From an uncultured delta proteobacterium (lineage in GTDB: Bacteria > Myxococcota_A > Polyangia > Fen-1088): a DNA stretch of 64,000 nt. The notes under the pieces were generated by a model, which ran no database searches, had not been told where the DNA came from, and was given only the letters and a program-made list of their open reading frames with translations. The translations under genes were made by a program, and so were the position numbers. Shown piece by piece: positions 19,220 through 42,200 of this stretch. The stretch lies in contig CAWCMR010000005.1 of NCBI GenBank assembly GCA_963796685.1, positions 192,001 through 256,000 on the forward strand. Direction: 5' to 3'. How positions within the stretch are numbered: the stretch's first letter is position 1; the number at the start of each line of letters is the position of its first letter.

Positions 19220-19375
19220 GATCACCAGCGACGGCTTCTTGTCATCGTGGAAAGGACACAGCCCGATCAAGTCCGCCCCGTGCCGCTTCAGCTCCACGCC
19301 CCGCGCCTCCGCCAGCCTCTGGATGGAGACCTGGCTTTTCAGCCGCTCGAGCTCGACGTCAGGGACACGTGCCAT
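19220..19375 (-). pseudogene. 5' fragment of the CHC2 zinc-finger primase
   Basis: MARVPDVELERLKSQVSIQRLAEARGVELKRHGADLIGLCPFHDDKKPSLVI is near-identical to the intact primases, then runs into REP sequence. Confidence 0.9.
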
Positions 19376-19552
19376 CGGAGATCCTCCGGAAAGCTGTCAA
19401 GGGCAAAACGTGGTTTTCACGCCCTCGAAAAGTATCATTGCACCCTGGACATGGAATAGTCCATAGTGGAATATAGTTTCATATGGAATATGCCGTCAGC
19501 CCACGGGGCCGGGCAGATCTGGGCTTACGATCTCGACAGCAAGGAGATCGCT

Positions 19553-19969
19553 GTGAAGAAAGGTCAGGCCACTTTGCTCAAGGACGTAGCCGACACCGGA
19601 CAGCCTGCCAATCGGCTGGCCACTGTCCGCAAAGCTCGCGGGGTGACTCAGGTCGACCTATCTGCCCGTCTCGGCATCACCCAGTCCATGTTGTCGAAGT
19701 ACGAGCGAGGTGATCTTCGCCTCCACGGCAACATGCTGGCGCAGCTCGCCGAGATTCTGTCGGTTTCCACCGACGAGCTTCTCGGCGTCCACGTCACGCC
19801 CCTGGCGACGCCGCCAGCGCTCAAGGACAAGCGACTGCGCCACCGCATTCACCAGATTGACCGTCTGTCCAAGCGCGATCGCGAGGCTCTCATCAGGACC
19901 ATCGATGCCTTCATCGGACGCGCTGAAATCGCCAACAATGATTCGGACTCACGGCGCAAGGCCGGATGA
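19553..19969 (+). CDS. XRE-family HTH repressor (element C variant)
   Basis: RLATVRKARGVTQVDLSARLGITQSMLSKYERG; AAGGAG RBS; divergent from the primase. Confidence 0.85.
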   Translation: MKKGQATLLKDVADTGQPANRLATVRKARGVTQVDLSARLGITQSMLSKYERGDLRLHGNMLAQLAEILSVSTDELLGVHVTPLATPPALKDKRLRHRIHQIDRLSKRDREALIRTIDAFIGRAEIANNDSDSRRKAG

Positions 19970-20004
19970 GGCACCATCAGCTAAAATCACCACCGGAGAT
20001 CGTC

Positions 20005-20208
20005 ATGGCCGCACCTGCACCTCAGCAGCTCTTCGAGAAGATCGCTCGTCTACCTCCTGCCCGTGTCGCAGAGGTCGAGGACTTCGTGGACTTCCTCGCC
20101 CTACGGAATACCGATCGTCAGCTCGCCCATGCCGCCGCCGCAGCTTCCGTGCCGGCCTTTGCCAAGGTCTGGGACAATCCCGAAGACGACGTCTACGACC
20201 AGACATAA
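20005..20208 (+). CDS. DUF2281-like antitoxin
   Basis: LFEKIARLPPARVAEVEDFVDFL...WDNPEDDVY; paralog at 29233. Confidence 0.75.
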   Translation: MAAPAPQQLFEKIARLPPARVAEVEDFVDFLALRNTDRQLAHAAAAASVPAFAKVWDNPEDDVYDQT

Positions 20209-20217
20209 GGGTCCACC

Positions 20218-20445
20218 ATGCCCTACCATCTCATCTTGATGGCCATCACCAGCCAGATCCGCCCGTCACCAACCGTGGGAGAGATCGCCGTCGTGCACTG
20301 GCAAGCCGCCGGGCTGCTCAAGCCGTCTGTCATCAAGCCCCTACTCACTACCATCGAGGCCAGCCTGGTCATCCGTCAGCTCGGCAAGCTTCACGCCGAC
20401 GACCAAGACAGCCTACGCAAGGTTCTCGCTGCGGTCATCGGCTGA
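20218..20445 (+). pseudogene. PemK/MazF toxin with a 36-codon internal deletion
   Basis: 75 aa versus the 111-aa paralog at 29451; lacks the VPFPFTD...KKRPAVV segment. Confidence 0.8.
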
Positions 20446-20480
20446 CGGCCGTGCTGGTTAGACAGAAAACTGCCTTGAAG

Positions 20481-21033: not shown

Positions 21034-21651
21034 TTACTTTACACCTCCATCTCGGCGAGTGTTCGAAGTAGGGCCGCTCGACGTACCGACAGATGTCGGC
21101 CTTGCGACAGATGAACTCTTGGCTCCACCAGCAGGCATCTCTAGCTTCAGGTTTCCGAGTTGGGAATCGAAGATTGATTCCGTGAAGCCAAAGATGTCGT
21201 CGTGCAAGGCCTCGACGACCCGCTCGTTGACGTCGAACTCCGCCACGCACCCTTCCGTCCTCCAGCAGTTGCCCCCCGGGACCTCCACACTGTGGTTAAT
21301 CGGAATCACCCATCCTGTGTAGCGCTTGGGAGAAATGATCCGGCACGTCGTCGCAGACCATGTGCGCTCGCCTTCACGGTCCAGAGCAAAGCGAGATCCC
21401 CCGAACTGCCGGAAACCGTTGTAGACAGCTTTGAGTCTTACGCGGGGCCCGGCGGCAATCCGTCGTCGTAGCTCAACCAAGTAATCGCGCGATCCTGGCG
21501 GGCTCGGCATCCCCTTCATCCATTCCAACTCCGACGCCGTCGTTCGACCGGCTCCCGCGCTCTCTGCGAATGCCTCCGAGAACATCAGAACGAATCCCAA
21601 GGCGATGGCGACAGACAACCGTGGTGAGAAGTTCATGGTCAGCCTCCTCAA
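21034..21651 (-). CDS. Putative exported immunity protein of tip 3
   Basis: TTGA overlap with the tip-3 stop; signal peptide ...MFSEAFA; lower GC. Confidence 0.65.
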   Translation of the reverse strand: MRRLTMNFSPRLSVAIALGFVLMFSEAFAESAGAGRTTASELEWMKGMPSPPGSRDYLVELRRRIAAGPRVRLKAVYNGFRQFGGSRFALDREGERTWSATTCRIISPKRYTGWVIPINHSVEVPGGNCWRTEGCVAEFDVNERVVEALHDDIFGFTESIFDSQLGNLKLEMPAGGAKSSSVARPTSVGTSSGPTSNTRRDGGVK

Positions 21652-22230
21652 TAGATCTGTGTAATGCTTGTCGGCGCAATCTGCCGATTGGTCAGGTTGC
21701 AGAGACTTCCAGACGCTGCCATTTGCGCGTTCAAGAATGACTCTATGCCCTGGTAGTTGATCTGCCCGCTACTGATCATACTCGGCAAGGGACCCAATGT
21801 AGCCTGAACGCCGCCAAAGGGCTGCAGCTTCATCGCAACATCGACGGTCGTCGCCCATGCCTCATACTCGGTCCCACCAAGCAGGTGAGTGTACTCGTGC
21901 ATGAATCCAATTACTGTACTTTCGGTCGATGCATTCTGGTTGATGTAGATGGCCGTGCGGTTTTCGCCGCCGTAGCGCGTCCAGGCAATGGCCTGATCCT
22001 TCACTATTACGGTCTTTCCGTCAGGTGTCTGAGCCACAACGTCACCTGGGTCGTATAGGTACACCTTGACGTTCTCATCCTGGAGAACTCCAATTGTACC
22101 GTCCGCACCAATCAGCCCAAGTCCCTTTCTGAGACTATCGCCCGTGACACTGTGCCTAAGAACATTCGGGGAGTTGTTGTCTACAGTGGTGCCTTTCGAA
22201 TCGAACGGTAGGTCGCCCCCCTGCTGTGTT
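21648..22230 (-). CDS. Orphan RHS toxin tip 3, HExxH metallopeptidase-like
   Basis: Begins TQQGG at the core; FMHEYTHLLGGTEYEA motif; the ORF is open upstream to 22454. Confidence 0.7.
22216..22230. repeat. Putative att core CCCCCCTGCTGTGTT
   Basis: Identical 15-mers at 22216, 31090 and 39855; a 12-bp version at 21023. Confidence 0.9.
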
Positions 22231-22669
22231 TGGTCGCCCCACCGCGTCTCCACCGTAAACCAAGGCATTTCCCTGATGCCTTCCGCAGGCTTACGCCGCT
22301 TCGGCCGGGGTGCGACCTGCCGAAAATTTGTCGCGAGGCCCAGACGTGCGTTTTCGGATCTGCAACACCTCGGCCGAGGGCGCGTGCTGGCGCACCGACG
22401 GGTGTTCCCCGTCGAGACTTCTTTTTTAGCTGCCTGCTGCTGAGCCAGGACCATCGTGGTGCTGCCGATTCTACCGGGAAGGGCGATTAAGGGAAGGAAG
22501 TCGCCAAGACCGACGGTGGCGCCGGCGAGACGCGCGGCGAGCCCGTCGCCAGCGAGCCAGCGGCGAGCCGGCCCCAGATGGTCGGGCCTCCGACGGTCGT
22601 GTAGAGTTCAAGGCCCAATACTTCTCCCAACGACGGGCAGCTTCCGGTAGAAATGAAGGCACGGCGACC

Positions 22670-24187: not shown

Positions 24188-24541
24188 TCAAGCGTGGCCA
24201 GATTGCCGCCGCTGGATCACGGTCTCGGTCTCGGCAAGCCACGCCTCGATGGCATCACCACCACCTTGTCCCGCCGCGATCATCAGCTTGCCCAGCATCA
24301 CCAAGCTCGTGCCGTCCAAGTTGTAAAAGACCTCGCCCACGGTCACGTGGCTGCAAGCGGTCCACAACGACCACGCCACCAGCAGCAGCAAGCGCTCGCC
24401 ACTCGACAATGGCCCGCCGCCGTGTTCTGCCAGATCCCTGGCCAGCACCGTCGGTCCCGCGTCGGTCCACAGCTCGGTCAGCCGAGCTCGAGCACAGAAT
24501 GCCCGGCACACCCGCGAAAGTTGCGACTCTGAGCTAAACAC
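24188..24541 (-). CDS. Conserved small element protein downstream of the recombinase
   Basis: Overlaps the xer 3' end; homolog at 33093..33443 keeps the frame. Confidence 0.7.
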   Translation of the reverse strand: MFSSESQLSRVCRAFCARARLTELWTDAGPTVLARDLAEHGGGPLSSGERLLLLVAWSLWTACSHVTVGEVFYNLDGTSLVMLGKLMIAAGQGGGDAIEAWLAETETVIQRRQSGHA

Positions 24542-25592
24542 GATCGTCCTCCTCCTCGCCGGACTCGGCGGCTAAAGTAGAAAGCAATTCCTCGGCGTCC
24601 TTCTCGCTGACCGCCGGCTTCTGGCCAGATTCCCGTCGACCGAGATGCGCCCCGGGGTGGGTCAGCTCGTGCACTTCCTTCAGCTTCTTGATCGATACCA
24701 GGGTGTAGATGCTCGTCGTCTCCAGGCTCGCGTGCCCTAGCATCGCCTGGATGAAGCGGATGTCCGCCCCGCTTTCCAGCATCAAGGTGGCCATCGTGTG
24801 ACGGAAAAGATGGCAACTCCCCACCTTGCCGATTTTCGCCTGCTCGATGTAGCCCCGCACGATGTCCGTCAGCGTGTGCGGCATGAAGCCGTTCCCGAGG
24901 TGCGAGATAAACAGCACGCCCTCGTCCGGCTCCACCACGTCCTTGGGCCGTACCTCGACGAGGTACTTTTCGATCCAGGAAAGCGCACGCTCGCCGATGG
25001 GCACCACACGATCTTTCCGGCCCTTCCCGAGCCGCACCATCAGCGTGCCGGCCTCTGGCTGCACGTCGTAGATCCCAAGCCTGACCAGCTCGCTCCGCCG
25101 GATCCCTGTCGAATACAGCGTCTCCAGCATCGCCCGGTCTCGGATCCCGCTTGGTTTCGTCACGTCCGGCAAGCTCAGGACGTGTTCCACCTCGGCGATG
25201 GTCAGCACGTCCCGCGGCAGCCGCCGATCCAGCCGAGGCAGATCGATCTCAGAAGCCGGATTGAAAAGGATCATGTTCGACTTCGCCATCCACTTGAAGA
25301 AGGCCAGCACCGCCGCCAGCCGCTTGTGTTGCGAGGCGATGGTCAGCGGCTTACCGAGCTTCGTCCGGTAGTAGAAGAGCCAGCGCTGGTAGCGCTCCAA
25401 GATCGGCCGCGTGACCTCCGTCGGGTTGCGCAGGCTGCGCTCTTCGCACCAATTGAAGAAAGCCCGCAGGTTGCCCTCGTTCCACTCGATGGTTCCCGGC
25501 GAAAAGTGCTTCGCCCGCCGCATGTCCAGAAACTCGGCAGCTCGTGCCCCGAGCGTCCCGTAGCTTGCAAGCTCGCGCAGTTTCCTGGCCAT
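24534..25592 (-). CDS. XerC/D-like tyrosine recombinase (element B)
   Basis: Full catalytic set: TGIRRSEL (R), GKGRKDR (K), HLFRH, LGH, TTSIY. Confidence 0.95.
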   Translation of the reverse strand: MARKLRELASYGTLGARAAEFLDMRRAKHFSPGTIEWNEGNLRAFFNWCEERSLRNPTEVTRPILERYQRWLFYYRTKLGKPLTIASQHKRLAAVLAFFKWMAKSNMILFNPASEIDLPRLDRRLPRDVLTIAEVEHVLSLPDVTKPSGIRDRAMLETLYSTGIRRSELVRLGIYDVQPEAGTLMVRLGKGRKDRVVPIGERALSWIEKYLVEVRPKDVVEPDEGVLFISHLGNGFMPHTLTDIVRGYIEQAKIGKVGSCHLFRHTMATLMLESGADIRFIQAMLGHASLETTSIYTLVSIKKLKEVHELTHPGAHLGRRESGQKPAVSEKDAEELLSTLAAESGEEEDDRV

Positions 25593-28500
25593 CAGTTCAC
25601 CTTGGCCGCGGCTGCGAGTACGACGGGCACATCAGGGTACGATGCGATTTTGGGCTCTACCCCCCTATGTGCTGTTTTCGGGTCAAAACGCCCGTTTTCA
25701 CCATTTCCATCGGGAATTGCAGCCGAAAGCTCACCCCGACCACCCCCCGACACCCCCCCGACTTCGGCCCGACTTGGCCCCGACTTCTTTGCCTCCAGCC
25801 CCGACCACCCGGCCAATACCCCCGACTTCTTTTCGTCGTACCCCAAGCTTCCAGGCTCGATCAGCCCAGACAGAAACGGCGTCCCGTCCTTGCCCTTGCC
25901 ATCATAGGCCAGCTCGTAGACAAAGCCCTGGCCCCGACTCCCGCGGTGCACCGCCAGGTATTCCAGATCTTCCAGGCGCCCAAGGTGGATCTTGAGCTGC
26001 GTGTTCCCCCAGCCGGTCGCGTCCCGCACCTCCCGCCGGCTGAAACGAAAATCCTTCCGCTCCATGCCCAGCCGCTGGCACTCCGCCGTCACGTACGCAT
26101 CTACCAGCAGCAAAAGCCGCCGCGTCTGCGGTGGCAGCTCGTCGAGCGATCGCCCAAGCACCTGGTCGGCCAGGCGGTTTGCCACCGAAATATCATCGAG
26201 AGTGACCTCGATGTACTCGATGGCCTGCACGTCCTGCTGTGCGGTCTTCACCGGCCGTTGATGCTGGTGGAGCAGTGCCACCGTCTCGATCAGCGTCAGG
26301 TATTTCATGTGGTCCCGTCGCGTTCGCGTCTGCCGATCTACAAACGTGAGGTCACGGGCATAGGGGTTCACCACCATCAGCGGACGCAGCAGGCGCTGCG
26401 CGTTCCGGTGGACCTTCAGCACGTCCTTCTTCCCCGCCCGTGCCAGCCGTCCCTCCAGCGTGTGTGCTTCGCGCTGGATCTTGTGAATGGCCTGCGTCTG
26501 CTCCCGGTCTTCGTCGACGGTCAGCACCAGGCACCGATTCAAAAGCTCCTCGTCGATCTCGATCGCCGTCGTGGTCAGAAAGATCATCACCGGTCCCTCG
26601 ACCCGGTATTCGTGCGTGATCAGCTTGCCGCTCTCTGGATCTTTGCCAGTGGATGCGATGGTCAGCTCGCCTTCGCTCTGCAAGACCTTCAGTGCGTACG
26701 AGGCCCGCGAGGCGCCTTCTTCCTCGACGATGGCGAGGATCTTGTGTTTCAGATTCGTCTCGCCCATGTAGAAGAGCGACTGTCCAGTCATCGCCGCGTA
26801 CTTCACCCGCTCTTCCTCGGGCACGAAGGCCAAGACCGCTTCCATCAGCGACGATTTCCCCGCTGCCGACGACGACTGGATCACCACCGCCAGGGGATCT
26901 TCCAGCTTGCGCGACACCGCCGCCAGGTAGCCGACGAGCTTGTTGGTTTCCTCGCCCACCACCCCGCAGCGACGGAAATCTTCGAGGATCCGATCGAGCA
27001 GCCGAGGATCTTTCAGCAGTGCCAGCGCCGCCGCCGTCTCCTCGTCGCTGAGCCGCACCGTCGTGTCTTTCGGCGCCAGTGCAGCCCGAATCTGCTGGTC
27101 TTGTAGTTGTTCCAGCTTCAGCAGCACCTTGCCCAGATCGGCCTTGATCACATCCTCAGTCACGCCAATCTCAAGCGCAGCCTGTTTCACGTAGATCGCG
27201 CGCTGTCGGGCGCCGTACACGTCCAAGGTGTCGACGTGGAAATGCTCGCCGCGACCGACGTGCAGGTTCACCTTCAGTGAGTCGAAGGCCGTGTTCTTCG
27301 CCAGGCCACGCACCCGATAACGACGGTCGCCGAAGCAAAAAATCACGTCTTCGCCCTGATGTTCGCACGGCACGTCTGCCACCGACACAGCCTCGGGCGC
27401 CGTCGTTTCTAAGATCGTCACCGGTGGTGGCTCCAGCGTGGCCTCCGTAGTAGGCGGGGGCTCAGCGTTGGCGGCTAAAGGAAGAGGGGCCGCCACGACT
27501 TCCGACTGCGGCGCTGGCGCCGCCGTGTCCACGGTGAGTTCGCGTTTTTCGCCCTTGCCCATGAAGACCGCGCTTTTCAGCGCCAGTTCCAGCGACTTCG
27601 CGGCCGGCGTCACCTTGCATGCGTATTCGTTCGCGTCCATGTCGCGAGGAAATTGCACGCGGTAGCACGAGATGCCCGCAGCCATCATCTGTGCGGCCAC
27701 CTTCTCCGCGCCACGCTCGCCGGCTTCGTCACGGTCAAACGCGATCAGCACCTGCGTGGTCCCGTAGCGCTTGAAGGCTGCCAGATGCTCGGCAATCGGG
27801 CTTTCCACCCCATAGATCGAGGTGACGTTGCGGAAGCCGTGGCACCAGAAGGTCAGGGCATCGATCAGCGCCTCGCACAGGATGATCGACTTCGACACCC
27901 GCAAGGCTTCCCAGTTGAAGATCCCTCGGTGCGGGCCGGGCAGATACATATGCAGGGGCGTTCCCTCGCGCAGCCCTGCTGTGATCTTCCGCCCGTACAT
28001 CCCCGCCACGTTTCCTTCTTCGTCGAAGATCGGGATCACCACCGAGCCGGTCATGTGCTCGTGCCCGCTCTCCCGCAAAATTCCCAGCTTCTGTAGCCGC
28101 CCCCGGATCTCGCTGCCGGCCTTCCACGCCCGCATCGGCAAGCGCAGCCCCAGCGTCCGGTTGGCGAAGCCCAGCTTAAAGCGGTCGATCATCTCCGACG
28201 ATTGCAGCCCCCGCCCTTCCAGGTACTTCACCGCCTCCGGGCTCTGCTTCAGCGTCTCGTGGTAGTAGCCCACCACCTGCGCCATGATCTCCCGGTCATC
28301 CGCATCCGCCTGCACAGGCGCCGCCAGTTTCCGGATCGTCGCCGTCTTCACCACGTTCGTCGACGGCGACGTCAAAGGCAGATCGGCCCGCAGCAGTTCC
28401 ACCGCGTGCCGAAAGGAAACGCCCTCGGCCTTCATCACCCAGTCGATCACCGACCCGCCCACCTGGCAGGCACCGAGGCAGTGCCAAAGGTTCTTCCGAG

Positions 28501-28660
28501 AGCTGATCACCAGCGACGGCTTCTTGTCGTCGTGAAACGGACACAGGCCAATCAAGTCCGCCCCCTGCCGCTTCAGTACCACGCCCCGTGCCTCCGCCAG
28601 CCGCTGCACCGACACCTCGGACTTCAGCTTCTCGATCTCGGACTCCGGGATTCGGGCCAC
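25592..28660 (-). CDS. CHC2 zinc-finger/Toprim DNA primase fused to a P-loop ATPase and wHTH (element B)
   Basis: CPFHDD..WHCLGAC, LCEALIDAL, AFDRD, SSAAGKSS Walker A, IVEEEG. Confidence 0.92.
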   Translation of the reverse strand: MARIPESEIEKLKSEVSVQRLAEARGVVLKRQGADLIGLCPFHDDKKPSLVISSRKNLWHCLGACQVGGSVIDWVMKAEGVSFRHAVELLRADLPLTSPSTNVVKTATIRKLAAPVQADADDREIMAQVVGYYHETLKQSPEAVKYLEGRGLQSSEMIDRFKLGFANRTLGLRLPMRAWKAGSEIRGRLQKLGILRESGHEHMTGSVVIPIFDEEGNVAGMYGRKITAGLREGTPLHMYLPGPHRGIFNWEALRVSKSIILCEALIDALTFWCHGFRNVTSIYGVESPIAEHLAAFKRYGTTQVLIAFDRDEAGERGAEKVAAQMMAAGISCYRVQFPRDMDANEYACKVTPAAKSLELALKSAVFMGKGEKRELTVDTAAPAPQSEVVAAPLPLAANAEPPPTTEATLEPPPVTILETTAPEAVSVADVPCEHQGEDVIFCFGDRRYRVRGLAKNTAFDSLKVNLHVGRGEHFHVDTLDVYGARQRAIYVKQAALEIGVTEDVIKADLGKVLLKLEQLQDQQIRAALAPKDTTVRLSDEETAAALALLKDPRLLDRILEDFRRCGVVGEETNKLVGYLAAVSRKLEDPLAVVIQSSSAAGKSSLMEAVLAFVPEEERVKYAAMTGQSLFYMGETNLKHKILAIVEEEGASRASYALKVLQSEGELTIASTGKDPESGKLITHEYRVEGPVMIFLTTTAIEIDEELLNRCLVLTVDEDREQTQAIHKIQREAHTLEGRLARAGKKDVLKVHRNAQRLLRPLMVVNPYARDLTFVDRQTRTRRDHMKYLTLIETVALLHQHQRPVKTAQQDVQAIEYIEVTLDDISVANRLADQVLGRSLDELPPQTRRLLLLVDAYVTAECQRLGMERKDFRFSRREVRDATGWGNTQLKIHLGRLEDLEYLAVHRGSRGQGFVYELAYDGKGKDGTPFLSGLIEPGSLGYDEKKSGVLAGWSGLEAKKSGPSRAEVGGVSGGGRGELSAAIPDGNGENGRFDPKTAHRGVEPKIASYPDVPVVLAAAAKVN

Positions 28661-31991: not shown

Positions 31992-33092
31992 GCTCCAAGT
32001 GTAGCGCGCCCAGGAGCGCGATGGGGCGTCATTCTGCACGGGTAGTTCCAGCTCTTGGAGGGCAGCGGCCCGACGGTTGCGGGCGGCGCAGCCGCCATGC
32101 AAGCGGCGGGACGCGGGCCGGGCGAGATGATGGCCCTGTTCACGCTGATCGTCGTGGCGGAGAGCGCAAGCGCGAGCGGCGGAGACGCCGCGGCCGGCGG
32201 CGGAGACGCGGTGGTCTGAGAGCGCGCTGTCGCCTGAAATGCCAAGCCTGCCCCGCGCCAGCCGGGCCCCAGCACACGCGTGCAATGCACGCTGCAGGAC
32301 GGCCCGGCCGCCGGACCGGGGCCCGTGGTCCGGCGCCGTTTCCCCCTAGGCGGAGCGGGCGGCGCCGTCCGCGGCGCTCAGAATCGCCCGCGTAGCCAGA
32401 GCGCCCCTCCCCTTTGGGGATTCCTTAAAAAAAGGGGGTGCCAGGGGAGGGGTGTCCAGAGGGGAGGGGCGCGGCGGGGGAAACGGCGGCCAAAGCGTGC
32501 TTGCACGCGTGTGCGTAAGGGGCCCGGCGTCGATCAAGCTGCGATGTCAGCACCAGGCGCGCGCCGCCACTTTGTGCACGATCGTTGCGCTGGCGAGCGA
32601 GAGTTGTCGTCGCCGCTTTCCCGGATGCAGCGACCATGCCGAGGCGTCCGATGCGAGCACAAGTTGACCGCCGCTGTGTCCCCGATGGCACTTGCGAGCG
32701 AGGCGCCGCGGCATGGGAGCGTCTACCGTGTGGCGCCGCTTTTCCCGATGGAGTCGCGCGCGCGTGCGCCCGGCAGGGGGCACGCGCGCGCGACGGGGCT
32801 CGGGCGCAGATCGCGGCGCTGAGCGCCTGCACGATGGAGCGGACTGGGCCTTGCCAGCGCGAGCGCGGCGCTGGCCGGCGCTCACGTGCGCGCACCCGCG
32901 CGCGAGCGCGTGCAAGGACCAGGACGCGGTGACCGGGGCACAGATCGCGGCGCTGCGAGCCACGCACCTGCACGATGGAGCGGGCGCCCGTGCGGTCGCA
33001 GCTTGAGAAAATGCTGTGGCCCAGCTGAAGGTGGAGCGACGGCACGGGCGCCCGCGGGGCCGCAGCCACGGAGCGCGGCTCACAGCCGCTGC

Positions 33093-33443
33093 TCACGCGT
33101 GGCCGGTGTTCCGCTGCCCGATCACTTTCTCAGCGTCGGTGATCCACGCCTCGATGGCCTCAGCACCCCGCCCCGCCGCGATCATCAATTTGCCCAGCAT
33201 GGTCAGGCTCGTGCTGTCCAAGTTGTAAAAGACCTCGCCCACCGTCACGTGGCTGCAAGCGCTCCACAGCGACCACGCTACCAGCAGCAGCAAGCGCTCG
33301 CCGCTCGACAATGGCCCGCCGCCGTGTTCTGCCAGATCCCTGGCCAGCACCGTCGGTCCCGCGTCGGTCCACAGCTCGGTCAGCCGAGCTCGAGCACAGA
33401 ATGCCCGGCACACCCGCGAAAGTTGCGACTCTGAGCTAAACAC
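33093..33443 (-). CDS. Conserved small element protein
   Basis: Homolog of 24188..24541. Confidence 0.7.
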   Translation of the reverse strand: MFSSESQLSRVCRAFCARARLTELWTDAGPTVLARDLAEHGGGPLSSGERLLLLVAWSLWSACSHVTVGEVFYNLDSTSLTMLGKLMIAAGRGAEAIEAWITDAEKVIGQRNTGHA

Positions 33444-34494
33444 GATCGTCCTCCTCCTCGCCGGCTTCGGCGGCTAAAGTAGAAAGCAATTCCTCGGCAG
33501 CCTGTTCGCTGACCACCGGCTTCTCGACACTCTCCCGTCGACCAAGATGTGCTCCGGGGTGGGTCAGCTCGTGCACTTCCTTAAGCTTCTTGATCGACAC
33601 CAGCGTGTAGATGCTCGTCGTCTCGAGGCTCGCGTGCCCAAGCATCGCCTGGATGAAGCGGATGTCCGCCCCGCTCTCCAGCATCAAGGTGGCCATCGTG
33701 TGCCTGAAAAGATGGCAGCTCCCTACCTTGCCGATCTTCGCCTGCTCGATGTAGCCACGCACGATGTCCGTCAGGGTGTGCGGCATGAAGCCGTTCCCGA
33801 GGTGCGAGATAAACAGCACGCCGTCGTCGGGCTCCACCACGTCCTTCGGCCTCACCTCGACGAGGTACTTTTCGATCCACGACAGCGCACGCTCGCCGAT
33901 GGGCACCACGCGGTCTTTGCGCCCCTTGCCCAATCTCACCATCAGCGTGCCGGCCTCTGGCTGCACGTCGTAGATCCCAAGCCTGACCAGCTCGCTCCGC
34001 CGGATCCCTGTCGAATACAGCGTCTCCAGCATCGCCCGGTCTCGGATCCCACTCGGCTTCGTCACGTCCGGCAAGCTCAGGACGTGTTCCACCTCGGCGA
34101 TGGTCAGCACATCCCGCGGTAGCCGCCGGTCCAGTCGCGGCAGATCGATCTCCGACGCTGGATTGAAAAGGATCATGTTCGACTTCGCCATCCACTTGAA
34201 GAAGGCCAGCACCGCAGCCAGCCGCTTGTGCTGCGAGGCGATGGTCAGCGGCTTGCCGAGCTTCGTCCGGTAGTAGAAGAGCCACCGCTGGTAGCGCTCC
34301 AAGATCGGCCGCGTGATCTCCGTCGGGTTGCGCAGGCTGCGCTCTTCACACCAATTGAAGAAGGCCCGCAGGTTGCCCTCGTTCCATTCGATGGTTCCCG
34401 GCGAAAAATGCTTCGCCCGCCGCATGTCCAGAAACTCGGCCGCCCTCACCCCGAGCGTCCCGTAGCTTGCAAGCTCGCGCAGTGTCCTGGCCAT
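33436..34494 (-). CDS. XerC/D-like tyrosine recombinase (element A)
   Basis: Near-identical to 24534..25592; catalytic residues intact. Confidence 0.95.
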   Translation of the reverse strand: MARTLRELASYGTLGVRAAEFLDMRRAKHFSPGTIEWNEGNLRAFFNWCEERSLRNPTEITRPILERYQRWLFYYRTKLGKPLTIASQHKRLAAVLAFFKWMAKSNMILFNPASEIDLPRLDRRLPRDVLTIAEVEHVLSLPDVTKPSGIRDRAMLETLYSTGIRRSELVRLGIYDVQPEAGTLMVRLGKGRKDRVVPIGERALSWIEKYLVEVRPKDVVEPDDGVLFISHLGNGFMPHTLTDIVRGYIEQAKIGKVGSCHLFRHTMATLMLESGADIRFIQAMLGHASLETTSIYTLVSIKKLKEVHELTHPGAHLGRRESVEKPVVSEQAAEELLSTLAAEAGEEEDDRV

Positions 34495-37400
34495 CAGTTC
34501 ACCTTGGCCACGGCTGCGAGTACGACGGGCACATCAGGGTACGATGCGATTTTGGGCTCTACCCCCCTATGTGCTGTTTTCGGCTCAAAATGCCCGTTTC
34601 CACCATTTTCCTCGGGTTTTCCAGGCAAAACCGCCATGCTCGACCCACCCTCAATGGGGGCTCGTTGGGGGCTCAATGGGGGCTCGAACTTGCCTTTTTG
34701 AAGCTCGAACTCGCCTTTACCATGCTCGTTCTTTTCGTCGTACCCGCAGCCGCCAGCCGGTTGCACCTCGAAGAGCCCCTGCAGAAACGGCGTACCGTCC
34801 TTGCCCTCACCGTCGTAGAGCAGCTCGTAGACGAAGCTCTGGCCACGCGTTCCCCGATGCACCAGCACGTATTCCAGATCGACCAGCTTGTCCAGGTGGG
34901 TCCGTACCTGAAAGTCCGTCCACCCCACCGCATCCCGCACTTCCTTGCGCGTGAAGCGGTAATCCTTCCGCTCCATCGCCAGCCCTTTGCAGCCTGCTGC
35001 CACCGTCTGGTCGAGCAGCATGAGCAGCCGCCGCGTCTGCGGCGACAGTTCATCGAGCGATCGCCCCAGCACCTGGTGTGCAAGTCGATTCGCCACCGCG
35101 ATGTCGGCCAGCGTGACCTCGATGTATTCGACCACCTTGCCGTGGTGCTGAGCCGTCTTCACCGGCCGTTGCTGCTGGTGCAGAAAAGCGATCGTCTCGA
35201 TCAAGGTCAGATACTTCATGTGGTCCCGTCGCGTGCGCGTGCGGTGGTCCGGGAAGCGCAGCTCGCGCGCGTGAGGGTTGACCACCATCAGCGGGCGAAG
35301 CAGACGGTGTGCATTTCGATGCACCTTCAAGATCTCTTCTTTTTCTCGGCGGACAAGCTGCCCTTCGAGGCTACGCGCCGACCGCTGCAATTCGTGGATC
35401 GCCCGCGTTTGTGCGCGGTCCTCGTCGACGGTCAGCACCAGGCAGCGATTGAGCAATTCCTCGTCGATCTCGATCGCCGTCGTGGTCAGGAAGATCATCA
35501 CCGGTCCTTCCACCCGGTACTCGTGCGTGACCAGCTTCCCGCTCTCTGGATCTTTGCCGGTGGATGCGATGGTCAGCTCGCCTTCGCTCTGCAGGACCTT
35601 GAGCGCATACGAGGCTCGCGAGGCGCCCTCTTCCTCGACGATGGCGAGGATCTTGTGCTTGAGGTTCGTCTCGCCCATGTAGAAGAGCGACTGCCCCGTC
35701 ATCGCCGCGTACTTCACCCGCTCTTCCTCGGGCATGAAGGCCAAGACAGCTTCCATCAGCGACGATTTCCCCGCGGCCGACGAAGACTGAATCACCACCG
35801 CCAAGGGATCTTCCAGCTTGCGCGACACCGCCGCGAGATAGCCGACGAGCTTGTTCGTCTCCTCGCCCACGACGCCGCAGCGACGGAAATCCTCGAGGAT
35901 CCGATCGAGCAGTCGAGGATCCTTGAGCAGTTGCAATGCTGCCGCCGTCTCCTCGTCGGTGAGCCGCACCGTCGTGTCCTTCGGCGCCAGCGCCGCGCGG
36001 ATCTGCTGGTCTTGCAGTTGTTCCAGCTTCAGCAGCACCTTGCCGAGATCAGCCTTCAGCACGTCTTCGTTCACGCCGAGCTCGGTCGTGGCTTGCTTGA
36101 GGAAGATCGCCCGTTGCCGGGCGCCGTAGATGTCCAGGGTGTCGACGTGGAAATGGTCGCCACGACCGGCGAGCAGGTTTACCTTCAGCGAGTCGAAGGC
36201 CGTGTTCTTCGCAAGACCTCGCACGCGATACCGACGATCGGCGAAGCAAAAGATCACGTCCTCACCTTGGTGCTCGCACGGCACGCCTGCCACCGGCACA
36301 GCCTCGGGCGCCGTCGTCTCCAAGATCGTCACCGGTGGCGGCTCCGTCGTGGCTTCCGCGGTGGGCGAAGCCTCCGCGTTGGCAGCTAAAGGAGGATGGT
36401 CAGCCGCCGCTGTTGGCTCCGTCGGCGTTTCGGCTGTCACCGCGGCCGCGGTCTGGATCGCGGGCGTCTCCGCAATCGGGCGCGCGCCCTTGCCCATGAA
36501 GACCGCGCTCTTCAACGCCAGCTCTAACGACTTCGCCGCTGGCGACACCTTGCACGCGTACTCGTTCGCATCCATGCCGCGAGGAAATTGCACCCGGTAG
36601 CACGAGATGCCCGCGGCCATCAGTTGCTCGGCCACCTTCTCGGCTCCACGTTCGCCAGCATCATCGCGATCGAAAGCGATCAAGACCTGCGTGGTCCCGT
36701 AGCGCTTGAAGGCTGCCAGGTGCTCGGTGATATGACTTTCGATGCCGTACACCGAAGTCACATTGCGGAAACCGTGGCACCAGAAGGTCAAGGCATCGAT
36801 CAGCGCCTCGCACAGGATGACGGACTTCGACAGCGGCAGGGCCTCCCAGTTGAAGATCCCGCGATGCGGTCCGGGCAGATACATATGGAGGGGCGTTCCT
36901 TCCCGCAGCCCTGGCGTGATCTTCCGCCCGTACATCCCCACCACGTTGCCTTCCTCGTCGAAGATCGGAATCACCACCGAGCCGTTCATGTGCTCGTGTC
37001 CGCTCTCGCGCAATACCCCCAGCTTCTGCAGCCGCCCCCGGATCTCGCCTCCAGCCTTCCACTGCTTCATCGGTAGCCGCAGCCCCAGCGTTCGGTTCGC
37101 GAAGCCCAGCTTGAAGCGGTCGACCATCTCCGACGACTGCAGCCCCCGACCTTCCAGGTACTTCAGCGCCTCCGGGCTCTGCTTCAGCGTCTCGTGGTAG
37201 TAGCCCACCACTTGCGCCAAGATCTCCCGGTCGTCCGCATCCGCCTGTACCGGCGCCGCTAGCTTGCGCACCACCGATGTCTTCACCACGTTCGTCGATG
37301 GCGACGTCAAAGGCAGGTCGGCCCGCAGCAGCTCCACCGCGTGCCGAAACGAAACGCCTTCTGCCTTCATCACCCAGTCGATCACCGATCCACCTGCCTG

Positions 37401-37595
37401 GCAGGCACCGAGACAATGCCAAAGGTTCTTCCGTGAGCTGATCACCAGAGACGGCTTCTTGTCGTCGTGAAAAGGACACAGCCCGATCAAGTCCGCCCCG
37501 TGCCGCTTCAGCTCCACGCCCCGCGCCTCTGCCAGCCGCTGCACCGACACATGGGCCTTGAGCTTCTCGATCTCGGACTCGGGGATTCGGGCCAC
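34494..37595 (-). CDS. CHC2/Toprim primase-ATPase-wHTH (element A)
   Basis: Same motifs as the element B copy; divergent linker and C-terminal wHTH/tail. Confidence 0.92.
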   Translation of the reverse strand: MARIPESEIEKLKAHVSVQRLAEARGVELKRHGADLIGLCPFHDDKKPSLVISSRKNLWHCLGACQAGGSVIDWVMKAEGVSFRHAVELLRADLPLTSPSTNVVKTSVVRKLAAPVQADADDREILAQVVGYYHETLKQSPEALKYLEGRGLQSSEMVDRFKLGFANRTLGLRLPMKQWKAGGEIRGRLQKLGVLRESGHEHMNGSVVIPIFDEEGNVVGMYGRKITPGLREGTPLHMYLPGPHRGIFNWEALPLSKSVILCEALIDALTFWCHGFRNVTSVYGIESHITEHLAAFKRYGTTQVLIAFDRDDAGERGAEKVAEQLMAAGISCYRVQFPRGMDANEYACKVSPAAKSLELALKSAVFMGKGARPIAETPAIQTAAAVTAETPTEPTAAADHPPLAANAEASPTAEATTEPPPVTILETTAPEAVPVAGVPCEHQGEDVIFCFADRRYRVRGLAKNTAFDSLKVNLLAGRGDHFHVDTLDIYGARQRAIFLKQATTELGVNEDVLKADLGKVLLKLEQLQDQQIRAALAPKDTTVRLTDEETAAALQLLKDPRLLDRILEDFRRCGVVGEETNKLVGYLAAVSRKLEDPLAVVIQSSSAAGKSSLMEAVLAFMPEEERVKYAAMTGQSLFYMGETNLKHKILAIVEEEGASRASYALKVLQSEGELTIASTGKDPESGKLVTHEYRVEGPVMIFLTTTAIEIDEELLNRCLVLTVDEDRAQTRAIHELQRSARSLEGQLVRREKEEILKVHRNAHRLLRPLMVVNPHARELRFPDHRTRTRRDHMKYLTLIETIAFLHQQQRPVKTAQHHGKVVEYIEVTLADIAVANRLAHQVLGRSLDELSPQTRRLLMLLDQTVAAGCKGLAMERKDYRFTRKEVRDAVGWTDFQVRTHLDKLVDLEYVLVHRGTRGQSFVYELLYDGEGKDGTPFLQGLFEVQPAGGCGYDEKNEHGKGEFELQKGKFEPPLSPQRAPIEGGSSMAVLPGKPEENGGNGHFEPKTAHRGVEPKIASYPDVPVVLAAVAKVN

Positions 37596-37748: not shown

Positions 37749-38114
37749 ATGCCACAGAGAGCCCCGAAAACCCGACCAGCCGAGGGCGCACGCCTGGCCG
37801 ACCTACGTCGCGCCGCCGGCCTCACCCAAGTCGAGTTCGCCAAGCTCGTCGGCGAGACCCAGCAAAACATCACCTTCTGGGAGCACAGCGATAAGCCACC
37901 GCGCTCCGACGTCCTGCCCAAGATGGCCAAGGTCCTCGGCTGCTCCGTCGAGCAGTTCCTCGGCATCTCACCGCTCGCAGATCGCCGCCCTGGCCCCGTT
38001 GGGAAGACCCAACGGGCGTTCGAGGAGGTCGCACGTCTCCCGCGCTCTCAGCAGGACAAGATCGTCGAGATCGTAGAGGCCCTCGTCGACCAGTATCGGC
38101 GCAAGGCTAGTTGA
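37749..38114 (+). CDS. XRE-family HTH repressor (element A)
   Basis: Near-identical to 28814..29179. Confidence 0.88.
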   Translation: MPQRAPKTRPAEGARLADLRRAAGLTQVEFAKLVGETQQNITFWEHSDKPPRSDVLPKMAKVLGCSVEQFLGISPLADRRPGPVGKTQRAFEEVARLPRSQQDKIVEIVEALVDQYRRKAS

Positions 38115-38154: not shown

Positions 38155-38979
38155 ATGGGTCTCTTCAGCAGATTTCTTGCTCAGCGTCCTCCAGAAGCGT
38201 CGGAGTTGAAGACGTACATGGAGGCTCTTGCTCGGGGTGGCGGACCAGATGTACGTGCCCGCTTTTTTCGCTCTCTCTTGTGCAGTCGATTGCTCGTCCC
38301 ATCGCCAGGACTGAAGCCTGGCTTGGATCCTCGAGCATGTACGGGCAGAGAAACAGATGTAGCAACCAACGCAGATTTTGTGGAGTCCAGTGCCCCGGAT
38401 GGAAGTCGCGGGATGGTTGTATTTACCGATGAACAAGCGCTTTTGGTGTGGCGCCCTACTGGCTGCCCCTTTACCACATTGCCCGCAAGCGACGTCTTCG
38501 GAATGGCTCTCGCCGCTCAACTTGCATCGTTGGTTTTCAATCCGGCCAACCCAATCGCTGGATACGTTTCTCGCTATGAGTTACTCGCTCTCGCTGAAGG
38601 CAGAGTTCCGCCACCACTCGGGAAGAATGAAGCGATGCAAGCATCTGGCCTTCAGCTTCGGCGTCTCGACCACGAAATTCCGACAGCCCTCAAGGAACTC
38701 ATATCGGCGGTTGGGCCAACCCTCATTGAGGTTCGCGCGGTCTGGCTTTTGGCACTCACGATCGAGCGAGGGGAGTCCCATCTCTGCGTTGTGATCGATC
38801 ATCGCCCTGGAGCCAATCCCGACACCTTTGTTCCACCTCTCATGACGCAGATTCAGACTCTGTTGAGGCCCGGAGAATACGTCGACTGCATCCCCATGCC
38901 TTCGGGCTCAGAGCTTCTGCAACAGGCATGGGACGCTTCCGTCCCAATCTTTGCCGCAAAGAAATCCAGAGAGAGCTAG
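38155..38979 (+). CDS. SseB-family protein (SseB N- and C-terminal domains)
   Basis: LLVP...MVVFTDEQAL..W...LVFNP N-domain pattern; EVRAVWL...HLCVVID C-domain; lower-GC cargo. Confidence 0.65.
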   Translation: MGLFSRFLAQRPPEASELKTYMEALARGGGPDVRARFFRSLLCSRLLVPSPGLKPGLDPRACTGRETDVATNADFVESSAPDGSRGMVVFTDEQALLVWRPTGCPFTTLPASDVFGMALAAQLASLVFNPANPIAGYVSRYELLALAEGRVPPPLGKNEAMQASGLQLRRLDHEIPTALKELISAVGPTLIEVRAVWLLALTIERGESHLCVVIDHRPGANPDTFVPPLMTQIQTLLRPGEYVDCIPMPSGSELLQQAWDASVPIFAAKKSRES

Positions 38980-39002
38980 AGCCCTGCGCTAGTTGTACTG
39001 TC

Positions 39003-39287
39003 TCACTTGTGATTCATCGCCCGCCGAATTGCCGATCCTGCCGTGAGGACAAGTCCGGGCAACGACCCGAAATCCAAAAGCAACGGTAAGTACCAAATCC
39101 CATTCACCATCCCAAGCGGCGTTACGAAGCACGCTGCAACACCGAAGAGGCCTCCGAAGAGGGGTATCCAGGATCTATGGTGGTTTCGATGTCGAAGGTT
39201 ATCGATCACAAACCAAGCATTTCCACCTGCAATGGCCGCGAACGCGGCCAGCAGAATCGCGGCTGTGACCCAACGAATAACCAGCAA
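39003..39287 (-). CDS. Putative membrane immunity protein of tip 1
   Basis: Immediately downstream of rhs; 94 aa, about three hydrophobic segments. Confidence 0.7.
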   Translation of the reverse strand: MLVIRWVTAAILLAAFAAIAGGNAWFVIDNLRHRNHHRSWIPLFGGLFGVAACFVTPLGMVNGIWYLPLLLDFGSLPGLVLTAGSAIRRAMNHK

Positions 39288-39295
39288 ACCAATCC

Positions 39296-42200
39296 TTATG
39301 GGAAGTACATTCTTTGCCCAAGCATAGCTTTGAACCAGTCGGTAAGAACAAACTCCTGCGGCATTTGGAGGGATGACAATGGAACTGTGTAGCTTTGACC
39401 ACTACTGAATGGGGCAAACATGTTTCCCATTCCCGGTTGCCACTTGCCAGACAAAACATAGTTGACAGCTGTCTTGCCGCCCGTCATGACCCAATCGCCT
39501 GCCTTCAGCCCCTCACTTCCCCAGCGCGAGACAAGGACAAGACGATCAGAGTTTGCCGCAACAACGGCTCCAGTACTACCACCGACGAGTCCCACTTCAG
39601 GTGCAGTTAGACCCAACCCCTCCAATAGACCCGGCGCCGCTGCAACACCAGCAATTCCCACGAGGTCAACGGCAGCTCCCACTGCCGCCCCACGAAGTAA
39701 ACCACTCTGGTACTCCGGCGTCCGTTGCATGGCGTAGTCCGGAAAACAATTGTCCATCGCACACGCGATATCTGGTCTCCTGAGCTTTCCAAGGGACATG
39801 CCCGCTTCATCATCAGGGGCAAGAACCTCGGACAAGTCTCCTCCTCCTCCCCCGCCCCCCTGCTGTGTTGCCTGGTCAACAGGGTTTGTGTGGCTGAAAG
39901 CCATAGACAGGGCGGCGGCGACCATGCCGTTGGCGGCACCTATGACTACGTTGTCGCCGAGGCTGCCGCCGGTGATGGGCGTCATAACCGCTGCCGCGAG
40001 GCCGCCAGCAATAGTGCCTCCCAATAGCTGACCGATGGGGTTACCGCCACCGATCTCCGCGCCGAAGTTCCCGAATGCGTACCCTGTGCCGAAGGCAAAG
40101 GCGCTTGCAGCGATGGTCGAGTCCCATGGGGCACCGGATTCGATCGCCGCGGAGGTGGTAACGGCCGCTAGCGCCATCGCGGCGTAAGTGCACCCGGCCC
40201 CCGAGGTGCCGATGCACACGGTGAGGACGATGAGGGGGCCGAATATCTGCCCGACCCCGGCCAACCCTTCCAACTGGTCTGACCAGAAATTGAACCCCGT
40301 CGGATCCGTGTACCGCAGAGGGTTATCCGCGGCGTAGCTGTAGCGGTTGTAGCTCTGCAGATCTGACGCGAACTGGACGTTAGGGTCGGGCGAAAGAAAA
40401 CGACCGACCGTTGGGTCGTAGATACGCCCGTTCATGTTCACGAGCCCCAGGCTAGGGATCGTTTCCTGGTCGGTAAAACCCCGATTCCCCGCTGGCGAGG
40501 CGAAGGTCGGCGGGTCGGCAACCTGGCCACTTGGGCTGCGGATCGCGCCCCAAGGGTCGTAACCGATCATACTGGCGCCGGGGCCGTCGGCAGGGGCGCT
40601 CGTGACGTGGCCATGTTCGTCGCTCGCCGCCGTCACGGAGCCGATGTGGTCGAAGTGGTGGTACTCGGTCTTGGGTGTTGTCGGGGTCGAAGAATCCTCG
40701 GTTACCACCTGGATGGCAAACGCGCTCCCACCGTGCGCCGCGCCCGCATAGATGAAGTGCGAGTGCTCGACGGTTGCGCCACGCGTCTTGCGCTCGTATA
40801 TGCTCTTGCCCGTAGCCCCAAGGCCCACGTACACCGTGCGCGACAGCGTGCTGTTGCCCGAGCTCCCGAGCGCCCCGTCCCCCGTGCCTACCGCCTGCAC
40901 CACCCGCAACCCATCCGCGCCGTAAATGAAGTCCGCTGTCTTTGTCTCGCTCCCTGTTCCACTGGTTAGCCGCGTCGCTTTGTTGGCCGCGTTCCACTCC
41001 ACCGTGCGGTCACCCACACTTAGCAGGTTTCCGTTCGCGTCGTAATTGTAGGTAGGGCCGTCGTCTATCTGGCAAACTGCGTGGGGGCCCGCATCGCGCG
41101 CTCCCGCCAGGCATCCCGTCCCGTACTTGTAACTCCTGCCTGCCTTGGTTTGCAGGTTCCCGAGTTCATCGTACGTGTAGCTTTCCGGGTCGTAGCCTTG
41201 CGCTGGGACCTGCACCGTAGCACTGAGCAAACGGTCAAGCGAGTCATAGCCGAAGGTCTCGCTCGCGGCTAAGCCGTTTGCGCCGTCCGTGCGCTGGCGC
41301 GCACGCAGGTTTCCCGCCTCGTCAAAGGCATACCCCCACTTCTGGATCACGTTGTCGCCGTCCGCATGTGCCGTGCTCGTCCTGCCGAGCAGCCACCCGG
41401 TCGCGTCGTTGCGCACTGACGCAGTCTCCACCCCGTTCCCTAACACCTCGTCAGTCACCTGTCCCGCCGCGTTCATCGCCGTCGCCTCCCACATCACCGC
41501 ACCGGTGGCGTCGTTCGCAACGTAATGCAGGTATCCGGCCTTTGTGTACACGTACTTCACTGCGAATCGATTGCCCTTGGCCTCAGGATAGCGCAAAAGA
41601 ATCGGACGGCCGAAACGATCATAGCCGTACGTCGAGCGAAACGTGCTGCCATCCGCGCAATCGGTTACCTCGTCCACGTCGCCAAACCCCGTGTAGCGGT
41701 ATGAACGTCCGGCCTGTTTCTCGCCAGCCCCTGGCGCCGGCGCAAACTCTAGCTGGCACGCACCCGCGAGTCGCGAGTCGCTCGGGCTCACCATTGCCGC
41801 GAGCTTTCCGATGCCATGCGGGGCGGCGTCGTAGATCCACCGCGCGGTTCCGCTGTCGTCGTCGCGCTGGACCACCCGCCCCAACGCGTCGTACGTCATG
41901 TAGCTTGGCCTGACTTTGCCGTCGGTCTGAACCACCAGATCGCTGAAGCTGTTGTACTGATAGCCCCAGTCACCAAGGTCCGGATCGTGGGTCGCCTGCT
42001 TGCGGCCACGAGCGTCGTATGTAATATGCACGGCATTGCTCGTGTCCGCGTCCGAGGCGCACACGTCGGTCGGCGACGCAGTGTAAGCCAGGTTGCCGTC
42101 GGCATCATACGCAAACGAAATGGTGACCCCGTTCGCATCGGTAACCGAGGAGATCTTCCCGAGAGCATTCTTGGTTTCGGAGCGCGTCCGCGACTCGCCG

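Follow-up and report, generated by a model that had tools for sequence, protein, structure and literature searches.

Units with an XerC-like recombinase and a primase-ATPase as candidate vehicles for the exchange of toxin tips in rhs and other polymorphic-toxin genes

Introduction

Rhs and CdiA toxins decide about neighbours in bacterial communities. Their C-terminal toxin tips are known to be exchanged, and the route of this exchange is an old question. Displacement of Rhs and CdiA tips and arrays of orphan tips with immunity genes are said to have been described by Koskiniemi et al. in 2014 and by Poole et al. in 2011. The accessible part of Jackson et al. 2009 (PMC2935791) describes C-terminal displacement of Rhs tips, proposes a circular intermediate and an episomal tip reservoir, and states that no integrase was known to accompany Rhs. 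For cdiA orphans, the accessible part of Ruhe et al. 2016 (PMC4927057) gives a 'fossil record' model and mentions that genes for integrases and transposases lie among the orphans; an excerpt of Steele et al. 2017 notes integrases associated with Rhs in bacteria of the bee gut. Here we describe an array of candidate integrative elements of one family at an rhs gene of an uncultured delta proteobacterium (assembly GCA_963796685.1, termed G000). It lies in a stretch of 64,000 nucleotides (nt) of contig CAWCMR010000005.1 (positions 192,001–256,000, forward strand), which is called the window below and from whose first letter all window coordinates are counted.

The array would share with C-terminal displacement of Rhs and CdiA that a new tip arrives at a conserved junction, that the old tip and its immunity gene are displaced and that arrays result. 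As far as their accessible parts go, the displacement papers proposed homologous recombination via retained core homology. Unlike in that scheme, the present unit has its own tyrosine recombinase, primase and repressor, the common stretch measures 13–19 nt in several lineages, and what precedes the orphans is a conserved sequence of the element, the arm, instead of rhs. From sequence comparison, we consider it probable that a circular unit is integrated site-specifically by its own recombinase at the junction between trunk and tip of the toxin gene.

Results

A scan of the window located the 15-mer CCCCCCTGCTGTGTT (+ strand) at 22216, 31090 and 39855, with spacings of 8765 and 8874 nt, and no further site at up to two mismatches. 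Three matches were reached in 0 of 100 shuffles. Elsewhere in the 7.3-Mb genome, zero copies were found at up to one mismatch (expected number of exact copies, about 0.03). The core codons (A)ACA CAG CAG GGG GG encode TQQGG, in frame at all three places, and stop-free tips of 190, 197 and 193 amino acids (aa), counted from TQQGG, follow. Nothing else was common to the three tips. The frames of the two orphan tips were open in 0 and 3 of 20000 mononucleotide shuffles.

Core 1 (39855..39869, −) is attL-like and lies inside the rhs open reading frame (ORF; 48343–39296, −, 3015 aa), with rhs on its 5' side and tip 1 on its 3' side. The trunk (39870..48343, −) starts with a lipoprotein-like signal and contains SpvB, FG-GAP (FG-GAP_3) and RHS repeats (RHS_repeat) according to Pfam. 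The end of the Rhs core is marked by the motif PxxxxDPxGL, which was read in the translation as PLRYTDPTGF; with the RHS repeats, the gene thus has the features of an Rhs polymorphic toxin. The 15-mer core is reached approximately 130 residues further on, after a Gly/Ala-rich stretch ending in ...NPVDQATQQGG that has a membrane-spanning look by eye. Tip 1 (39296..39854, −) is now fused to rhs. Its GC content was 0.52–0.61, compared with 0.63–0.66 just inside the trunk.

Core 2 (31090..31104, −) and core 3 (22216..22230, −) each have the arm on the 5' side and an orphan tip on the 3' side. Rhs core homology was absent upstream of the orphan tips; only the 15-nt core was common, and then the arm followed. 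Orphan tip 2 (30510..31089, −) and orphan tip 3 (21648..22215, −) both contain an HExxH motif (HEGVH and HEYTH, respectively). A small gene whose product starts with a hydrophobic or signal-like stretch comes after each of the three tips: immunity-like gene 1 (39003..39287, −; 94 aa, hydrophobic; role from position), immunity-like gene 2 (29896..30540, −; 214 aa, lipoprotein-like start) and immunity-like gene 3 (21034..21651, −; 205 aa, signal-peptide-like start). Since neither the tips nor these neighbours matched any Pfam or NCBIfam family, we assign them putative toxin and immunity roles from their position, the HExxH motifs of tips 2 and 3, the signal-peptide- or membrane-like neighbours and weak leads. 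In the Atlas, tip 3 led to metallopeptidase clusters (0.85–0.89) and tip 1, weakly, to PT-TG/MafB clusters (0.80–0.83), both as leads only.

Two complete units (8750 and 8859 nt) lie between the cores, and a third is broken. With the tip end facing rhs, the order in a unit is tip, immunity-like gene, cargo, XRE repressor, primase-ATPase, recombinase, small ORF, GC-rich stretch, second variable slot and arm. The rhs gene, tips, immunity-like genes, primase, recombinase and small ORF are on the minus strand; the XRE gene and the first cargo genes are on the plus strand. In the manner of integrative elements with a tyrosine recombinase, the recombinase gene is near one end, 2.3 kb from the arm-side core, and the exact 15-mer stands at both ends of elements 1 and 2. 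The recombinase (352 aa; element 1, 33436..34494, −; element 2, 24534..25592, −; 97% identical to each other) matched Pfam Phage_integrase (E = 3e-38) and the NCBIfam 'XerC' subfamily NF002331 (425 bits, cutoff 371). It is Xer-like and has no arm-binding N-terminal domain. The primase-ATPase (element 1, 34494..37595, −, 1033 aa; element 2, 25592..28660, −, 1022 aa, assigned by likeness to element 1) has a CHC2/DnaG-type zinc finger, a Toprim domain and a C-terminal P-loop part (Pfam Zn_ribbon_DnaG, DNAG_N, Toprim). It also matched primase families of PHROGs, with phrog_12057 on residues 570–890, and a PDB sequence search with its C-terminal 568 residues gave zero matches. Divergent from the primase gene, an XRE repressor is encoded in element 1 (37749..38114, +; Pfam HTH_3, NCBIfam RstR-like below cutoff) and in element 2 (28814..29179, +; 94–95% alike to the former).

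Between the core and the XRE 3' end, the two units show no relation; they are 69–97% alike over the backbone, unlike in the second slot and at least 85% alike over the arm. The arm (31105..31331, −, in element 1; 22231..22454, −, in element 2) occupies approximately 220 nt before each orphan core, and its two copies are 91% alike. The arm does not resemble rhs, and the similarity between arms ends right after the core. When four arm copies from G000 and its relative G002 were aligned, the final 170 nt before the core were nearly invariant. As a side observation, the arm here contains no stop in the frame of the tip, so the orphan ORFs (268–273 aa) extend to a GTG or ATG start codon inside the arm and gain an Arg-rich leader (31331–31105 and 22454–22231) that does not look protein-like; the arm of another member of the family (L119, below) has in-frame stops.

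An earlier note on this DNA had claimed a threefold 15-mer encoding TQQGG in frame with different tips and immunity-like genes, one and the same backbone in the intervals of about 8.8 kb, and orphan tips preceded by arm sequence rather than rhs homology. The scan and translations, the Pfam and NCBIfam identities with the measured spacings, and the end of the arm likeness at the core, respectively, confirmed these claims.

The recombinase was used to search for a wider family. Relatives were found in 464 metagenome and 260 genome stretches, and 152 loci at 50–96% identity were kept, from Pseudomonas, Dyella, Rhodanobacter, Duganella, Sphingomonas, planctomycetes, acidobacteria and others. A primase-ATPase gene was directly upstream of the recombinase gene in 111 of 115 loci with room for it. 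Further upstream there was frequently a giant ORF on the same strand, ending 1.5–3 kb before the primase gene. The family is linked to the ends of polymorphic-toxin genes: 43 C-terminal segments of upstream ORFs included ten with RHS repeats, two with DUF637, two with CDI-toxin EC869-like tips and three TraI-like relaxases, and 12 giant upstream ORFs that were scanned whole had RHS repeats (five), filamentous haemagglutinin repeats (two), He_PIG and LysM (four) or no family (one).

In several of these loci, the boundaries of the units could be read directly. In the isolate Fluviicoccus keumensis DSM 105135 (L119), the toxin ORF contains the 14-mer ATGTTGCAAACAAT at a distance of 509 nt from its end, and two more copies lie 7128 and 14256 nt downstream of the first. 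The two units delimited in this way (7128 bp) are 100% identical, including a deaminase-like tip; core copies 2 and 3 stand behind the same arm, and after copy 3 the frame continues into another tip, of 174 aa. Allorhodopirellula solitaria (L088), also an isolate, likewise has two 100% identical units (7101 bp) and a different third tip, in frame, of 360 aa. The units of both organisms start at a core of 14–20 nt, 450–510 nt before the end of the toxin ORF. Loci L016 and L091 have a 19-nt core (VPNAGA) in common with different tips, and in L138 the core measures 28 nt and the tips 452 and 526 aa. The common stretch thus measures 15 nt in G000, 14 nt in F. keumensis, 19 nt in L016/L091 and 13 nt in L094, and over the 60 nt before the core the identity in these four cases is at random level (0.25–0.37). 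A systematic test covered 28 loci with sufficient flank to either side, 22 of which had a long ORF (500 aa or more) upstream. The last 1.6 kb of this ORF was compared with the region behind the recombinase gene for exact repeats of 14 nt or longer. Such a repeat was found in 12 of the 22 loci, followed in eight of the 12 by an in-frame opening of at least 90 aa.

Two side observations concern the genomic context of the family. A TraI/TrwC-type relaxase was the long upstream ORF in three of the 43 loci (entry names L017, L020, L025, L089, L130 and others), so some family members are in conjugative contexts. The primase/recombinase pair was also present on Ralstonia megaplasmids (12 records), on Leptospira plasmids (10) and in plasmid records of Caballeronia, Janthinobacterium, Enterobacter, Salmonella and Pseudomonas aeruginosa.

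An empty and an occupied site were found in Escherichia coli. Strain SCU-113 has two tandem units behind a vgrG-DcrB-rhs operon at the pptA/nhoA locus, and each of its recombinase genes is followed by an arm, a fragment encoding DPIGL...WIDPxGL and a tip. In strain JNE151685, the flanks are 99.3% and 98.8% alike to those of SCU-113 and the unit is missing; its rhs gene carries the tip and neighbour (WP_023155668.1) that are located 16.7 kb further downstream in SCU-113. The 16.7-kb insert of SCU-113 has 74 nt of the junction at both ends. Compared in this way, the pair reads as the classical footprint of integration with displacement. The locus, which we take to be the RhsE locus of K-12, appears to host such elements in some E. 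coli strains. Beside the junction fragment, the H-rpt of E. coli Rhs elements (ISEc1, ydcC) was observed directly behind it (15132–16268 and 5389–6525 in SCU-113, L160; 3233–4369 in L158), and the E. coli units carry SymE-family genes adjoining the repressor gene.

Units were also found as circular records. A circular 'plasmid' record of Shigella flexneri (8,758 bp) consists of one unit and has no trunk gene, and the same sequence is integrated, at 98–99% identity, in 44 of 5426 complete E. coli genomes. A circular record of Lonsdalea populi (11,289 bp) holds two non-identical units with trunk-less tips: an endonuclease starting with an Rhs core end (...NPVGWIDPFGL) and an HNH nuclease. Seven contigs from metagenomes or metagenome-assembled genomes (6.6–9.1 kb) had terminal overlaps of 101–123 nt and contained a whole unit without a trunk. 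The two circular records and seven contigs fit the predicted circle.

Alternatively, tips could be displaced by RecA-dependent homologous recombination (Jackson et al. 2009), with the Xer and primase genes only maintaining or resolving a tip-bearing episome. The duplicated junction of 74 nt in E. coli would suit such a route, as would the orphans of L133 and of the Lonsdalea circle, which keep the conserved end of the Rhs core, and the mosaic backbones (69–97% identity), which point to exchange between elements. Efficient RecA-dependent exchange, however, needs more than 13–19 nt, and in G000, F. keumensis, L016/L091 and L094 there is just such a short stretch, with random-level identity before it. 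Moreover, a tyrosine recombinase gene stands beside the arm in every complete unit, and the core co-varies with the junction of the host gene (see below). These three observations favour site-specific integration over a homologous crossover, and we regard displacement by homologous recombination as unlikely.

Among 61 related genomes, close copies of the recombinase were present in two, G000 and G002, and the element is therefore sporadic. A search of related genomes for rhs loci with this core and other tips, as proposed in the earlier note, was successful in G002, which belongs to the same genus: it has the same locus and flank, a degraded rhs, backbones 85–92% alike to those of G000, and three core variants with 0–2 changes followed by three other in-frame tips. 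The conserved arm was found in four of 89 genomes of the taxonomic family (G000, G002, G082 and G083), and all six of the arm-core copies in these genomes are followed by different open in-frame tips. In G082, from another genus, decayed units stand behind the rhs gene. Here, the homologous arm ends with TCTGAGCCAGGGGGGCGG, the rhs junction of this genome reads GGAGAGCCAGGGGGGCGG, and the stretch common to the two is GAGCCAGGGGGGCGG. The arm-side core of G082 is thus unlike that of G000 and matches the rhs junction of G082 itself; G083 has the same variant. In these alignments, the core beside the arm co-varies with the local rhs junction.

Two rhs orthologs keep QQGG or QQDG at the boundary (...ATQQDGG in G006, ...QEQQGGG in G011). 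In G006, 28 nt around the boundary are identical to G000 within a domain that is only 61% identical; behind the junction come a different tip, an immunity-like gene and a PemK pair, and a backbone is absent from the 520 nt left before the contig ends. G006 was rejected as a clean empty site, since the lipoprotein gene downstream lacks a counterpart in G000 and synteny across the site is therefore not demonstrable. The element-free homologues suggest that the protein boundary itself is conserved. This would agree with a small plasmid-like replicon trapped, by chance or otherwise, beside toxin genes, whose recombinase served only multimer resolution or inversion and whose core was kept as the TQQGG domain boundary; an Xer-like recombinase without an arm-binding N-terminal domain would also suit such a replicon. 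Yet the trunk-less orphans keep the exact 15-mer next to a non-coding arm, and units with unrelated cores are repeatedly linked to toxin-gene 3' ends across phyla, which makes a trapped replicon highly improbable.

The comparison of G000 and G002 bears on another explanation, namely that the backbones are old vertical residents. Only the cargo from core to XRE would then be replaced, by a double crossover in the arm/core and XRE/primase regions, and the array would not record insertions of whole elements. In line with this, the two genomes have the same locus and layout, backbones 85–92% alike compared with 89.5% for rhs over one stretch, and zero tips in common, and elements 1 and 2 become alike abruptly at the XRE 3' end. 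Vertical residence is at odds with the identical tip-containing whole units in tandem in F. keumensis and A. solitaria, with circular records that hold a tip plus a backbone, with close copies in only 2 of 61 related genomes, and with the empty E. coli site, which lacks the whole unit. We therefore consider it quite improbable.

The remaining features of the array differed between elements or had no assigned function. The cargo of element 1 includes an SseB-like accessory gene (38155..38979, +; Pfam SseB, SseB_C), that of element 2 a PemK/MazF toxin gene with a small upstream ORF (29233..29786, +; Pfam PemK_toxin). In element 1, the second variable slot, where the identity between elements drops, holds a ParE toxin/antitoxin pair (31481..31991, −; Pfam ParE_toxin, Unstab_antitox). 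The small conserved ORF behind the recombinase gene (33093..33443, −, 116 aa, in element 1; 24188..24541, −, in element 2) had tblastn relatives in L005–L007, L023, L040, L045 and L046 and no family in Pfam, NCBIfam or PHROGs. The GC-rich stretch of element 1 (32100..33090; GC 0.73) had equal GC at the codon positions and was, in windows, 87–96% alike to that of element 2. Stretches of approximately 1 kb with a GC content of 0.72–0.74 and no coding signature (32100–33090 and 23200–24190) were also observed in other loci (L162:8461–9012, L162:13229–14001 and L001:11444–12443) and were kept in decayed units of G082 and G002 that lack the primase and recombinase genes. The stretch may serve as a replication origin or belong, as a long segment, to the attachment site. 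An Rfam search over 17000–41000 gave zero matches, so neither the GC-rich stretch nor the arm was named as an RNA. The truncated third backbone (19220..20446) comprises a remnant of the PemK region (19995–20446), an XRE gene (19466–19969, +) and the first approximately 50 primase codons (19375–19220, −).

At the far end of the array, there is a 459-aa ORF (17341–18720, +) without a Pfam family, which by eye contains a histidine run like that of Y1/HUH transposases, and a ParE-like gene (17067–17471, −); the stretch 17684–18752 also flanks the array in G002. Upstream of rhs follow genes for a sigma-54 activator with an FHA domain (49424–51067, +), a large Ser/Thr kinase with AAA and TPR parts (51095–54973, −) and, further on, tRNA-Arg(CCG) (59139–59213, −). 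No genes of a type VI secretion system were noticed adjoining rhs in the window. Outside the window, a gene with one in-frame TAG, whose recombinase product shares 40% identity with the element's, was located at G000:C5:107503–108249. Such a copy at about 40%, often with a single in-frame stop, was present in most related genomes and is probably the housekeeping Xer, with the stop just outside the gene.

Discussion

We propose that the array is a stack of integrative elements that insert as circles. The attachment site of the circle would be the continuous sequence of arm, core and tip, and its target the junction between trunk and tip of the toxin gene. Strands would be exchanged within the short core (AACACAGCAGGGGGG) by the XerC-like recombinase of the element. 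Because the core coincides with the trunk/tip junction of rhs, integration would join the new tip in frame to the trunk. The previous tip, together with its immunity gene, would be shifted downstream, behind the arm and without a trunk, where the tip is presumably silent. Repeated rounds or tandem integration would build the array, and recombination between two cores would remove whole units and return an older tip under the trunk. The primase-ATPase probably replicates the circle, which is expected to exist and replicate in the source organism, and the XRE repressor probably keeps it silent.

The model of circle integration had been put forward in the earlier note, and each of its structural predictions was borne out here or in relatives, which supports it by comparison. 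The accompanying idea that the array is an insertion history holds only if integration always takes place at the rhs-proximal core, and the far end is truncated.

Several observations weigh against the proposed integration. The third backbone breaks off at 19220 and leaves the far end of the array without a last arm, core and tip; due to this truncation, the original tip is lost. Around the cores, nothing convincing in the way of inverted-repeat half-sites was seen by eye, and none were defined. The fold of the arm was not unusual (z = 0.10), and on this value the idea that the arm folds as a single strand, in the manner of attC or the CTX attP, was dropped. The backbones of G000 and G002, approximately 90% alike, have diverged about as much as the rhs genes, so it is also possible that the backbones descended vertically and the tips turned over. 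Four peat metagenome runs with only small shares in the run search (0.12–0.17) yielded short backbone-relative contigs that left the tips uncovered (Logan contigs, likeness of at least 90%), and no circle, rhs–tip 2 or rhs–tip 3 joint among them. Among the wider family, no repeat of at least 14 nt was found in ten of the 22 loci with a long upstream ORF, where shorter cores, lost ends as in the window or too little flank are possible reasons. In the repeat loci without a long opening, the frame closed after 8 and 27 codons (two loci) or after 65 codons (one locus), or the contig ended (one locus). The duplicated junction in E. coli is, at 74 nt, long enough for homologous recombination, and an extra module of a tip and Imm8 lies between the E. 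coli trunk and the first element, so other events also occur at this locus. Finally, assembly collapse of identical tandem copies would mimic the circular records and contigs.

The locus and its relatives point to a concrete vehicle with an integrase, an attachment core at a domain boundary, a replication module and a repressor, and hence to a mechanism that can be tested. It is of high interest, since it offers a testable answer to an old question that is apparently valid across phyla. We lean towards the broader view that a family defined by an XerC-like recombinase and a primase-ATPase, spread across phyla, small and probably self-replicating, is a vehicle that moves tips among Rhs, CdiA-like and LysM-type genes. 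A promoterless tip would work only after in-frame integration, switching would be reversible, and the array would be an archive of tips and immunities. If this is true, orphan arrays are products of site-specific insertion, the identity of a toxin can switch by excision, and the recombinase/primase pair is a marker for new tips and immunities in genomes and metagenomes.

Satellites such as phage-inducible chromosomal islands and tycheposons combine an integrase, a repressor and a primase. The present units are similar to them in their integrase, divergent XRE gene and primase, their size of 7–9 kb and their site-specific position in a host gene; they differ in that the target is the trunk/tip junction and the cargo a promoterless gene fragment. 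No packaging or capsid-redirecting genes were noticed in the ORF lists of the region. Gamma-Mobile-Trio elements, according to the accessible part of their description (bioRxiv 10.1101/2023.03.28.534373), have a tyrosine recombinase and carry offensive and defensive cargo. The units resemble them in mobility, recombinase type and cargo, and the mode of insertion differs. Membership was rejected, as the GmtY model reached 20.8 bits (E = 1.9e-4) against a cutoff of 340 and neither GmtX nor GmtZ was found. Integrative mobile elements exploiting Xer (IMEX), which use the host XerCD at dif, were ruled out because each unit has its own recombinase and the site is inside rhs. Integrons and gene cassettes were likewise ruled out by the recombinase in each unit, the arm z of 0.10 and integron-integrase models far below their cutoffs.

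Xer-like recombinases beside arrays of toxins and immunities are known from other loci. The accessible text of Zhang et al. 2012 (PMC3482391) mentions XerC/D genes beside polyimmunity loci, and that of Ross et al. (bioRxiv 471110) XerC/D-like recombinases as neighbours of acquired interbacterial defence clusters; bioRxiv 10.64898/2026.07.13.738213, in the part accessible, cites Martinkus et al. 2026 (Curr Biol) for Xer-dependent recombination beside poly-immunity arrays. As in these loci, recombination has been suggested as the builder of the array. Unlike polyimmunity loci, which consist of immunity genes, the present units carry an in-frame tip, a primase-ATPase and an arm, and have a target toxin gene; Martinkus et al. 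2026, known by this citation only, may overlap with our description. No description of a unit with a primase and an XerC-like recombinase and with an in-frame attachment core in toxin genes was found in a literature search that did not cover Martinkus et al. 2026 or the recombinase-linked loci in Additional File 1 of Zhang et al. 2012. For dusA-specific integrases, which provide a contrast to insertion at gene ends, the accessible text (PMC4482086) places the action at the 5' end.

C-terminal displacement as such is already known; for the vehicle and the in-frame attachment site, no description was found. The closest analogy in the mode of insertion is offered by islands in tRNA genes and by phage 21 and e14 in icd, which insert at gene 3' ends and carry a replacement for that end. 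With these elements the units have in common a tyrosine recombinase near one end, short direct repeats at both ends, an intact target and possible tandems. Unlike in those elements, the replacement end is a different toxin domain with its own immunity gene, and since it differs from the old end, integration would change the product. By this analogy, the locus would resemble a genomic island in rebuilding the 3' end of the gene it targets, except that the rebuilt end encodes another toxin domain.

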